NCBI RefSeq assembly: GCF_044324875.1 | Contig: NZ_CP172185.1 | Strand: one strand, 5' to 3' | Length of the DNA stretch: 64,000 bases | Origin: Escherichia coli | Lineage (GTDB): Bacteria; Pseudomonadota; Gammaproteobacteria; Enterobacterales; Enterobacteriaceae | Part shown: positions 38,825 through 62,152 of the stretch, one piece after another | Layout: every line of letters begins with the position of its first letter | Position numbering within the stretch: the stretch's first letter is position 1 | Made by a program: the position numbers and the translations under genes | Notes under the pieces: generated by a model | The model's database searches: none | Told to the model about the DNA's origin: nothing | What the model saw: the letters and a program-made list of their open reading frames with translations, nothing else

Positions 38825-39256
<432 letters not shown>

Positions 39257-58312: not shown

Positions 58313-58388
<76 letters not shown>

Positions 58389-58427: not shown

Positions 58428-58503
<76 letters not shown>

Positions 58504-58710: not shown

Positions 58711-60900
58711 ATGTTTGTGGAGCATAACCTGATAAAAAATATCAAGATATTCACACTAGCGTTTACGCTCACCGTGGTACTCATTCAGCTATCCCGTTTT
58801 ATTTCGCCACTTGCCATTATCCATTCCAGTTATATCTTTCTGGCGTGGATGCCACTGTGCGTAATGCTGTCAATCTTGTTTATCTTTGGCTGGCGCGGTG
58901 TCGTTCCCGTTTTATGCGGGATGTTTTGCACCAATCTGTGGAACTTTCATCTATCTTTTTTACAGACCGCGGTCATGCTCGGCAGCCAGACGTTTGTTGT
59001 GTTGTGTGCCTGCGCAATATTACGCTGGCAGCTGGGGACGCGTTGGCGTTATGGATTGACCAGCCGATATGTCTGGCAACGTCTTTTCTGGCTTGGTTTG
59101 GTGACGCCGATCGGCATCAAATGCAGCATGTATCTTGTGGGGAGCTTTTTTGATTTCCCGCTAAAGATATCCACCTTTTTCGGCGATGCGGATGCCATTT
59201 TCACAGTCGTTGATTTACTAAGCCTTTTCACCGCTGTGCTGATTTACAACATGCTTTTCTACTATCTCACTCGCATGATTGTAAGTCCCCACTTTGCGCA
59301 GATATTGTGGCGCAGGGATATCGCTCCGTCGTTGAGCAAAGAGAAACGCGCATTTACCTTAAGCTGGCTGGCAGCTCTTAGCGTGCTGCTACTTCTGATG
59401 TGCACACCGTATGAGAATGACTTTATTGCCGGTTACCTGGTACCTGTTTTCTTTATCATCTTTACCCTCGGTGTCGGTAAGCTTCGCTATCCGTTTTTAA
59501 ATCTCACCTGGGCTGTTTCAACGCTTTGCCTGCTGAATTACAACCAGAACTTTTTGCAAGGGGTACTAACCGAATATTCGCTGGCATTTATTCTCGCGGT
59601 GCTGATTTCCTTTAGTGTTTGCCTGCTCTATATGGTGCGCATTTATCATCGCAGTGAATGGCTTAATCGCCGCTGGCATTTGCAGGCGCTGACCGATCCG
59701 TTAACGCTCCTACCCAACTTTCGTGCGTTAGAACAAGCGCCGGAGCAAGAGGCGGGCAAGAGTTTTTGCTGCCTGCGCATTGATAATCTTGAGTTTATGA
59801 GTCGTCATTACGGCTTAATGATGCGCGTTCACTGTATCCGATCAATTTACCGTACGCTGCTGCCGTTGATGCAGGAAAACGAAAAGTTGTATCAATTGCC
59901 GGGTAGTGAACTGCTGTTAGTGCTGAGTGGACCGGAAACGGAAGGGCGACTCCAGCATATGGTTAACATCCTGAATAGTCGGCAAATTCACTGGAACAAT
60001 ACCGGGCTGGATATGGGCTATGGTGCTGCCTGGGGGCGTTTTGATGGAAATCAGGAAACCCTGCAACCCTTGTTGGGGCAGTTAAGCTGGCTGGCGGAGC
60101 AATCCTGCGCACATCACCATGTGCTGGCGCTGGATAGCAGAGAGGAGATGGTTTCCGGGCAGACCACTAAACAGGTGCTATTGCTGAATACCATTCGCAC
60201 GGCGTTAGATCAGGGTGATTTGCTGCTCTACGCCCAGCCAATTCGCAACAAAGAGGGTGAAGGTTATGATGAGATCCTCGCGCGACTGAAATATGACGGC
60301 GGCATTATGACCCCGGATAAGTTTCTGCCCCTTATTGCTCAGTTTAACCTTAGCGCGCGTTTTGATTTGCAAGTGCTGGAATCCCTGTTGAAGTGGCTGG
60401 CAACACATCCTTGCGACAAAAAAGGCCCGCGCTTTTCAGTCAATTTAATGCCGCTCACGCTGCTGCAAAAGAATATTGCCGGGCGGATTATTCGTCTGTT
60501 TAAGCGTTATCACATCTCCCCGCAGGCGGTCATTCTTGAGATCACCGAGGAGCAGGCGTTTTCTAACGCAGAAAGCAGCATGTACAACATCGAGCAACTG
60601 CATAAGGTTGGCTTCCGGATTGCGATTGATGACTTTGGCACCGGCTATGCCAACTACGAACGGTTAAAGCGTTTGCAGGCTGATATCATCAAAATTGATG
60701 GTGTCTTTGTGAAAGATATCGTCACGAATACGCTGGATGCGATGATTGTGAGATCAATTACCGATCTGGCGAAAGCGAAGTCATTGAGTGTGGTCGCGGA
60801 GTTTGTCGAGACGCAACAGCAGCAGGCGCTATTGCATAAGCTCGGGGTGCAATATCTGCAAGGGTATTTGATTGGTCGCCCGCAGCCATTAGCTGATTAA
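58711..60900 (+). CDS. pdeA: membrane-anchored c-di-GMP phosphodiesterase (MASE1 - degenerate GGDEF - EAL)
   Basis: 729 aa from MFVEHNLIKNIKIF; hydrophobic N-terminus; EAL-domain motifs (QPIRNKEG, DDFGTGYANYERLKRL) present and no canonical GGDEF motif seen. Confidence 0.9.
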   Translation: MFVEHNLIKNIKIFTLAFTLTVVLIQLSRFISPLAIIHSSYIFLAWMPLCVMLSILFIFGWRGVVPVLCGMFCTNLWNFHLSFLQTAVMLGSQTFVVLCACAILRWQLGTRWRYGLTSRYVWQRLFWLGLVTPIGIKCSMYLVGSFFDFPLKISTFFGDADAIFTVVDLLSLFTAVLIYNMLFYYLTRMIVSPHFAQILWRRDIAPSLSKEKRAFTLSWLAALSVLLLLMCTPYENDFIAGYLVPVFFIIFTLGVGKLRYPFLNLTWAVSTLCLLNYNQNFLQGVLTEYSLAFILAVLISFSVCLLYMVRIYHRSEWLNRRWHLQALTDPLTLLPNFRALEQAPEQEAGKSFCCLRIDNLEFMSRHYGLMMRVHCIRSIYRTLLPLMQENEKLYQLPGSELLLVLSGPETEGRLQHMVNILNSRQIHWNNTGLDMGYGAAWGRFDGNQETLQPLLGQLSWLAEQSCAHHHVLALDSREEMVSGQTTKQVLLLNTIRTALDQGDLLLYAQPIRNKEGEGYDEILARLKYDGGIMTPDKFLPLIAQFNLSARFDLQVLESLLKWLATHPCDKKGPRFSVNLMPLTLLQKNIAGRIIRLFKRYHISPQAVILEITEEQAFSNAESSMYNIEQLHKVGFRIAIDDFGTGYANYERLKRLQADIIKIDGVFVKDIVTNTLDAMIVRSITDLAKAKSLSVVAEFVETQQQQALLHKLGVQYLQGYLIGRPQPLAD

Positions 60901-60907
60901 CAGGCGT

Positions 60908-60939
60908 AAAAAAACCGGGGAATTATCCCCGGCTTTTTT
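60908..60939. terminator. bidirectional rho-independent terminator between pdeA and nupC
   Basis: aaaaaaccgggg-aattat-ccccggctttttt. Confidence 0.8.
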
Positions 60940-60949
60940 ATGTATGGTC

Positions 60950-62152
60950 TTACAGCACCAGTGCTGCGATTGACGCAGACAGCACACTCACCAGGGTAGA
61001 GCCGTAAACCAGTTTCAGACCGAAGCGAGAAACCACGTTACCTTGCTCTTCATTCAGGCCTTTAACTGCACCTGCGATAATCCCGATTGAAGAGAAGTTA
61101 GCGAAGGAAACCAGGAACACAGAGATGATGCCTTCAGCACGCGGAGAGAGCGTGGAAGCAATTTTCTGCAGATCCATCATCGCAACGAACTCGTTGGAAA
61201 CCAGTTTGGTCGCCATGATACTGCCCACTTGCAGTGCTTCACTGGAAGGAACACCCATCACCCATGCAATCGGATAGAAGATGTAGCCCAGGATGCCCTG
61301 GAAGGAGATGCTGTAGCCAAACCAGCCAGTCACGGTAGCAAACAGTGCGTTCAGCGCGGCGATCAGGGCGATAAAGCCGATCAGCATCGCGGCAACGATA
61401 ATGGCGACTTTGAAACCTGCCAGAATGTATTCACCCAGCATTTCGAAGAAGCTCTGACCTTCGTGCAGGTTGGACATCTGGATGTTTTCTTCACTGGCAT
61501 CAACACGGTAAGGGTTGATCAGCGACAGCACGATAAAGGTGCTGAACATGTTCAGTACCAGTGCCGCAACGACGTATTTCGGTTCCAGCATGGTCATGTA
61601 TGCACCAACGATGGACATCGACACGGTGGACATCGCCGTTGCTGCCATGGTGTACATACGATTGCGGGAGATTTTGCCGAGGATGTCTTTATAGGCAATA
61701 AAGTTTTCAGACTGACCCAGAATCAGGGAGCTGACGGCGTTAAAGGATTCCAGTTTGCCCATGCCGTTGACTTTGGAGAGCAGGAAACCAATTGCGCGGA
61801 TAATCACCGGCAACACGCGAATGTGCTGGAGAATACCGATCAATGCAGAGATAAAGACAATTGGGCACAGCACTTTCAGGAAGAAGAATGCCAGGCCTTG
61901 ATCATTCATGCTACCAAAGACGAAGTTAGTCCCTTCGTTGGCAAATCCGAGCAGTTTTTCGAACATTTCGGAGAAGCCTTTCACGAAGCCTAAACCAACG
62001 TCGGAGTTCAGGAAGAACCACGCCAGTAACACTTCGATAACAAGCAGTTGAATAACATAACGGATACGAATTTTTTTGCGGTCGCTGCTTACCAGCAGTG
62101 CGAGAATCGCAACAACGGCAAGTGCCAGTACAAAATGAAGGACGCGGTCCAT
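60950..62152 (-). CDS. nupC: nucleoside:H+ symporter NupC
   Basis: Protein from [33 protein letters not shown] recognised as NupC (400 aa); track ORF extends 13 codons upstream. Confidence 0.93.

Follow-up and report, generated by a model that had tools for sequence, protein, structure and literature searches.

The convergent genes pdeA and nupC are separated by a short spacer that holds an insertion sequence (IS) in Escherichia coli K-12, and a 64,000-nt stretch of E. coli DNA (contig NZ_CP172185.1; we call the whole stretch the window) has the same junction with no IS in it. The locus raises the question of what the uninterrupted spacer consists of, why it receives IS186 in other genomes, and how many times this has happened. 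The original prediction for the locus, drawn from the letters of the window, had described a single strong bidirectional terminator and no IS, had placed an IS186 copy here in K-12, and had taken its absence as support for a non-K-12 background and as a mark of a natural IS target. Our analysis makes it very probable that the spacer is a bidirectional terminator shared by both genes, with an activity predicted from its sequence, and that its stem doubles as a recurrent target of IS186, empty in the window and filled in K-12 and about 17% of genomes. The K-12 copy, IS186C, and the target rule of IS186 are already annotated and published, and the site is ordinary biology; what is added here is a count across genomes and an argument for recurrence, both of them minor and of an importance that goes little beyond bookkeeping.

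A predicted terminator common to pdeA and nupC

The anatomy of the junction can be read directly from the window (Table 1). The stop codons of pdeA (60898–60900, + strand) and nupC (60950–60952, − strand), placed by the open reading frames (ORFs) of the window, and the ORF ends at 60900 and 60950 confirm exactly the 49-bp spacer of the original prediction; RefSeq confirms the gene names. The spacer reads CAGGCGT-AAAAAAA-CCGGGGA-ATTA-TCCCCGG-C-TTTTTT-ATGTATGGTC (60901–60949).

Table 1 Features of the pdeA–nupC junction, in window coordinates
Feature	Position	Strand	Description	Basis
pdeA (yfeA)	58711..60900	+	Putative c-di-GMP phosphodiesterase, 729 aa, intact	Open translation and RefSeq annotation of matching genomes (2,190 bp)
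Convergent intergenic spacer pdeA/nupC	60901..60949		49 bp	Ends of flanking ORFs at 60900 and 60950
A7 run	60908..60914		Directly before the hairpin; predicted U-tract on the − strand (nupC direction)	Terminator call, tail CGGTTTTTTT
Predicted terminator hairpin CCGGGGA-ATTA-TCCCCGG	60915..60932	both	7-bp stem with 6 G–C pairs, 4-nt loop	Terminator scan and folding
IS186 target motif GGGG-AATTAT-CCCC, unoccupied	60917..60930		GGGGAATTATCCCC	Motif from PMC5009759
GGAATTATCC	60919..60928		10 bp, duplicated around IS186 in K-12 and other occupied genomes	Junctions in L001 and L003
T6 run	60934..60939		One base past the stem; predicted U-tract on the + strand (pdeA direction)	Terminator scan
nupC	60950..62152	−	Nucleoside:H+ symporter, 400 aa, intact	Translation and RefSeq annotation (1,203 bp)

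A pattern scan called a terminator on each strand at the spacer hairpin, which lies 14–17 nt past each of the two stop codons; on the − strand a T7 run directly adjoins its stem, and on the + strand T6 begins after a single intervening base. RNA of the + strand has a predicted folding energy of −24.1 kcal/mol (z −5.62) and RNA of the − strand one of −22.6 kcal/mol (z −6.03), and in each case 0 of 200 shuffles were as stable. Because an A-run stands on one side of the hairpin and a T-run on the other, RNA from either strand would end in a hairpin and a U-tract, so that both pdeA and nupC transcripts would be stopped here. The spacer is thus expected to be an intact Rho-independent terminator common to the two transcripts. 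The earlier description of a single strong bidirectional terminator agrees with the calls on both strands and with the fold energies, where 'strong' refers to sequence and predicted energy. Bidirectional intrinsic terminators between convergent genes have the same G+C-rich hairpin with an A-run and a T-run, here fitted between stop codons 49 bp apart, and compared with these the predicted activity of the spacer hairpin shows nothing unusual.

The palindrome might instead be kept for protein binding or as a REP-like element, with pdeA and nupC transcripts ending elsewhere or through Rho. In favour of this, the 1-kb region around the spacer contains two terminator-like patterns, a count that does not exceed the shuffle expectation of 1.3. 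The geometry, however, is canonical in stem, G–C content, loop, T-runs and distance from both stops, the fold energy is far outside that of the shuffles on both strands, and in one group of genomes (haplotype B, see below) an A-to-G change gives the stem a further G–C pair. Rfam, moreover, produced only sub-threshold matches on the spacer, to ar35 and to Leu_leader (28 bits, threshold 50), the latter a model with a terminator-type hairpin, and these matches reflect the shape of the terminator. We therefore regard a palindrome without terminator function as highly unlikely, and keep to a terminator shared by both genes. A promoter-like match at 60897–60926 (9/12) is within chance expectation.

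The sequence around the hairpin varies among genomes. In YZ_2_1 (L008, 3076–3100 and 4440–4470), B25FEP and KK19-02 the spacer contains AAAAAAG-CCGGGG-AATGAT-CCCCGG-C, in which an A-to-G change adds a G–C pair to the stem and a T-to-G change alters the loop, the IS186 motif being kept; this variant also occurs occupied by IS186, in both orientations on haplotype B. The A-run before the hairpin has eight As on haplotype C and seven in the window, and the spacer of KE55 (L002) measures 50 bp rather than 49 bp, differences that look like ordinary variation in the length of a homopolymer, the A/U tract of the terminator. Upstream of pdeA, two tandem tRNA genes lie at window positions 58313–58385 and 58428–58500; matching genomes annotate both as tRNA-Ala, and in K-12 they are alaX/alaW. 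Rfam matches below threshold, to tmRNA_permuted and Leu_leader, fall on the tandem tRNA genes and the spacer and look like matches of shape only.

IS186C splits the hairpin in K-12

Alignment across the interval bore out the statement that K-12 carries IS186 here, rather than the bare junction of the window. The MG1655 record (NC_000913.3) annotates 'insertion sequence:IS186C' at 2514273–2515617, with insL3 (b2394), between nupC (b2393) and pdeA (b2395). A 2,051-bp query spanning the junction was split in its matches to MG1655, NEB Turbo, strain C122 and others by an extra 1,349 bp, made up of a 1,339-bp IS with 23-bp perfect terminal repeats and a 10-bp duplication, and annotated in the matching genomes as 'IS4-like element IS421 family transposase'. 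The K-12 junctions read ...AAAAAAACCGGGGAATTATCC / CATAAGCGCTAACTTAAGGGTTG ... CAACCCTTAAGTTAGCGCTTATG / GGAATTATCCCCGGCTTTTTT..., which places IS186C within the predicted terminator hairpin, flanked by a direct duplication of the 10 bp GGAATTATCC that occupy window positions 60919–60928. With the IS and one duplicated copy taken away, K-12 gives the window spacer exactly, with 0 differences between positions 60729 and 61013.

The 23-bp terminal repeat of IS186, CATAAGCGCTAACTTAAGGGTTG, had 0 matches in the whole 64-kb window with up to 3 mismatches allowed, in agreement with the original statement that the junction contains no IS. At the same locus and the same nucleotide position as IS186C of MG1655, the window hairpin shows, unbroken, the sequence on either side of that element; unlike MG1655, the window is without IS186 at the site or anywhere in its 64 kb. 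It is the pre-insertion (ancestral, unoccupied) allele, on a flank haplotype 1.4% from that of K-12.

Insertion of IS186 splits the hairpin and parts its halves from their U-tracts. Both pdeA and nupC are expected to have lost termination in K-12, because the pattern scan called a terminator at neither K-12 junction and the predicted folds of the junction RNAs are no more stable than those of shuffles (z −0.21 and −0.45). The closest terminator-like site in the pdeA direction in K-12 is about 550 bp inside the IS. One insertion would in this way remove the termination of two genes and leave both coding sequences untouched.

The terminator stem is an IS186 target

IS186 has a highly specific target, 5′-GGGG(N6/N7)CCCC-3′, of which the K-12 genome contains only 19 sites with N6 and 35 with N7, and in mutation-accumulation lines it inserted repeatedly and independently at single sites in either orientation, the motif being palindromic (Lee et al. 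2016, PMC5009759); an earlier target consensus is that of SaiSree et al. 2001, as cited in the same paper. The motif GGGGN6CCCC has one match only in the 64-kb window, that in the spacer, where 0.84 per 64 kb would be expected by chance. All three MG1655 copies of IS186, namely IS186C, IS186A (between dnaJ and mokC) and IS186B (between hokE and entD), sit in GGGGA-N4-TCCCC palindromes with 10-bp GG-N6-CC duplications. Because the stem in the spacer matches GGGG(N6)CCCC and the other MG1655 copies use like palindromes, the terminator stem and the target of the IS186 transposase are one and the same sequence, a point absent from the original prediction. More generally, a G+C-rich palindromic terminator stem can double as a transposase target. 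The transposase would prefer the stem core GGGG-N6-CCCC, and a 10-bp staggered cut in it would duplicate GGAATTATCC; entry would be possible in either orientation because the target motif is palindromic.

The lon promoter, fimA and menC are known hot spots of IS186 that likewise received the element recurrently at one GGGG(N6)CCCC site each, in either orientation (PMC5009759). Those hot spots were seen in laboratory lines, whereas that in the spacer is seen in natural genomes, and they disrupt a promoter or a coding sequence, whereas insertion in the spacer would interrupt only a shared terminator. Intact coding sequences may be the reason that occupied alleles persist in so many lineages. A literature search for IS186 together with nupC gave no match, and a preprint on terminator evolution names IS186 only for terminators within the element.

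Occupancy of the site in E. coli genomes

The state of the junction was tallied in 5,426 complete E. coli genomes, scoring a junction as empty when at least 80% of a 401-bp query matched in one piece and assigning the IS186 classes by their left junction. The junction was empty in 4,440 genomes (82%), carried IS186 in the K-12 orientation in 474 and in the opposite orientation in 467 (for example, Survcare045), and had IS200C at the site in 19, which by difference leaves about 26 unclassified. IS186 was thus present in 941 of the 5,426 (~17%), at the same nucleotide position in either orientation, and the junction nucleotides and the duplication of the oppositely oriented copies are the same as those in the K-12 orientation. 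The claim that the spacer is a natural IS target accordingly stands, with a perfect GGGG(N6)CCCC motif, these 941 copies of IS186 and the 19 of IS200C. As a marker by presence, absence and orientation, the site sets K-12 and many other lineages apart from the E. coli majority.

A probe for the IS186 junction matched at a median of 1 place per genome, so that at least half of the genomes have a single match and no room for a second IS186 end. We infer that about a third or more of the genomes that bear IS186 have a copy at the pdeA/nupC site.

Two genomes depart from these classes or add to them. In strain ST2747, an example of the unclassified group, nupC is wholly missing and pdeA is annotated with 2,214 bp (against 2,190 bp) and followed directly by the mntH upstream region; because pdeA there adjoins that region, the spacer and nupC have been lost by deletion. 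In ET210 (NZ_CP100987.1), IS186 lies in the spacer and pdeA, interrupted by an IS1B, is annotated as two fragments.

Probable recurrent insertion on diverged flanks

In a sample of 15 occupied genomes, the 1-kb flanks to the left and right of the element were compared. At least six flank haplotypes were present, 11–34 differences per 2 kb apart. Haplotype A comprises K-12, strain C122 and Survcare045, with 14EC029 and CUPF09 2–3 differences away; haplotype B comprises B25FEP and YZ_2_1, with the loop AATGAT and the A-to-G change that adds a stem G–C pair; haplotype C comprises CDE2901, ECOCN22, H8, YZMc17-1 and CH10268 (L015, L016, L019, L021 and L022); and KK19-02, WP8-S18-ESBL-07 and ST648 each have a haplotype of their own. 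The IS copies are the same as that of K-12 or one SNP off, that of B25FEP being 1 bp shorter and annotated as frameshifted. Because near-uniform elements lie in flanks up to 1.7% apart, the insertions appear to be younger than the haplotypes.

The 10-bp duplication was found in 14 of the 15 genomes, as GGAATTATCC in K-12 and 10 others and as the loop variant GGAATGATCC in 3. In the genomes with the AATGAT loop (B25FEP, YZ_2_1 and KK19-02) both duplicated copies carry GGAATGATCC, and the loop variant must for this reason be older than the insertion. Each of haplotypes A, B and C occurs with both orientations of IS186. The reconstructed empty site of each of the three is matched by empty genomes with 100% identity over 1,600 bp: A has at least 40 such genomes, NCTC86 among them, B has one, together with many at 99.9%, and C has at least 20. 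The simplest reading of the flanks is recurrent insertion into a hot spot, in at least six events and probably more, a count taken from flank haplotypes. Recombination could have carried an occupied allele from one background to another, gene conversion could have kept the IS copies alike, and either could lower this count.

The one genome of the 15 without a 10-bp duplication, H8, has 11 bp, which we considered as proof of an independent insertion and rejected, given that the duplication is 10 bp in two other opposite-orientation genomes of this haplotype; the additional G in H8 may be a homopolymer assembly error.

Haplotype C contains all four combinations of orientation and the IS SNP C432A, with 0 differences in the flanks over up to 5 kb. 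Such a four-gamete pattern requires in-place inversion, gene conversion or several insertions drawn from a pool that was itself polymorphic. Simple independent insertion fits it only if the donor pool of IS186 was polymorphic. The pattern is also what would be seen if IS186 had entered once or twice and the resident copy had then flipped in place, by way of its 23-bp repeats or its transposase, while recombination spread the occupied alleles. Such a history would account for the near-equal orientation counts (474 and 467), for the junction nucleotides and 10-bp duplication that both orientations share, and for the pair of K-12 and Survcare045, in which an identical IS stands in opposite orientations with 1 flank difference in 3.7 kb. 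A repeat of 23 bp is, however, a very poor substrate for homologous recombination, and near-identical IS copies occur on six or more diverged flank haplotypes. A palindromic target, moreover, predicts just such identical junctions for the two orientations, and repeated insertion in both orientations at a single site has been seen in mutation-accumulation lines (PMC5009759). Empty alleles with 100% identical flanks are also common on haplotypes A and C, with one on B. We consider in-place inversion of IS186 unlikely because of these empty alleles on A, B and C, the palindromic target and the shortness of the terminal repeats.

The opposite history, in which IS186 was ancestral at the locus and the empty junction of the window and of 82% of genomes arose by repeated precise excision, has in its favour that a precise loss between the 10-bp duplications would restore exactly the window sequence. 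An ancestral element should have diverged in step with its surroundings, but no more than 1 SNP separates the IS copies, against up to 1.7% divergence of the flanks, and in the variant haplotypes the duplication contains the altered loop, which dates those insertions after the loop mutation. Both orientations exist, and at least half of the genomes have the single junction-probe match that allows no second IS186 end. Excision from an ancestral occupied state is disfavoured and has, in our judgement, next to no chance of being correct. Recurrent insertion into the terminator stem is therefore the history that we retain. A wider proposition can be attached to it: that the pdeA/nupC terminator is one of the natural sites in E. 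coli where IS186 lands most often, and that part of the orientation polymorphism, the four combinations on haplotype C included, might reflect flipping in place, or selection acting on transcription that runs into or out of pdeA (c-di-GMP turnover) and nupC, as opposed to neutral repeated insertion; we think it improbable.

IS200C in the same spacer

The spacer also receives another IS, unrelated to IS186. IS200C, of the IS200/IS605 family, is inserted in the T6 run after the fifth or sixth T (window 60938/60939) in the 19 genomes noted above, mostly from porcine ETEC/O139 isolates. In ETEC4069 (L004, 2716–3424) its junctions read ...CCGGCTTTTT / GTGCACAG...ATATTTATTT / ATGTATGG; another copy lies at 1533–2244 of L006 (AR_0019). 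IS200C differs from IS186 in entering the end of the T-run and not the stem, without a target duplication and by a different transposition chemistry, and the window spacer contains none. In other genomes, IS200C stands at the T-run end of a much-alike terminator, AAAAAAACCGGGGAAATTCCCCGGTTTTTTTT, between wzzB and hisIE, and the element may have a preference for the 3′ edge of such terminators.

The empty site as a lineage marker

The original prediction had read the absence of IS186 as support for a non-K-12 background. The background itself is confirmed, the window differing from K-12 at 28 of 2,000 flanking positions (1.4%), but the argument from the empty site is weak, because an empty junction is common to 82% of genomes, including at least 40 with 1,600-bp flanks identical to those of K-12 (among them NCTC86). 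An empty site rules out K-12 itself and is yet a weak lineage marker; the divergence of the flanks is the stronger evidence. Around the spacer, a 401-bp piece matches strain CFSAN018748 with 100% identity. Over the 25 kb of window positions 39001–64000, the best match among the 5,426 complete E. coli genomes reaches 99.2–99.3%, and the window is from a lineage not closely represented among them, or is a mosaic.

The junction also bears on a strain label. NZ_CP026085.1, labelled 'DH5alpha' (4.83 Mb), has an empty junction in a haplotype-B-like flank, unlike the K-12 derivatives MG1655, C600, DH1, HST04 and J53, and its junction state and size suggest that it is not a true DH5alpha.
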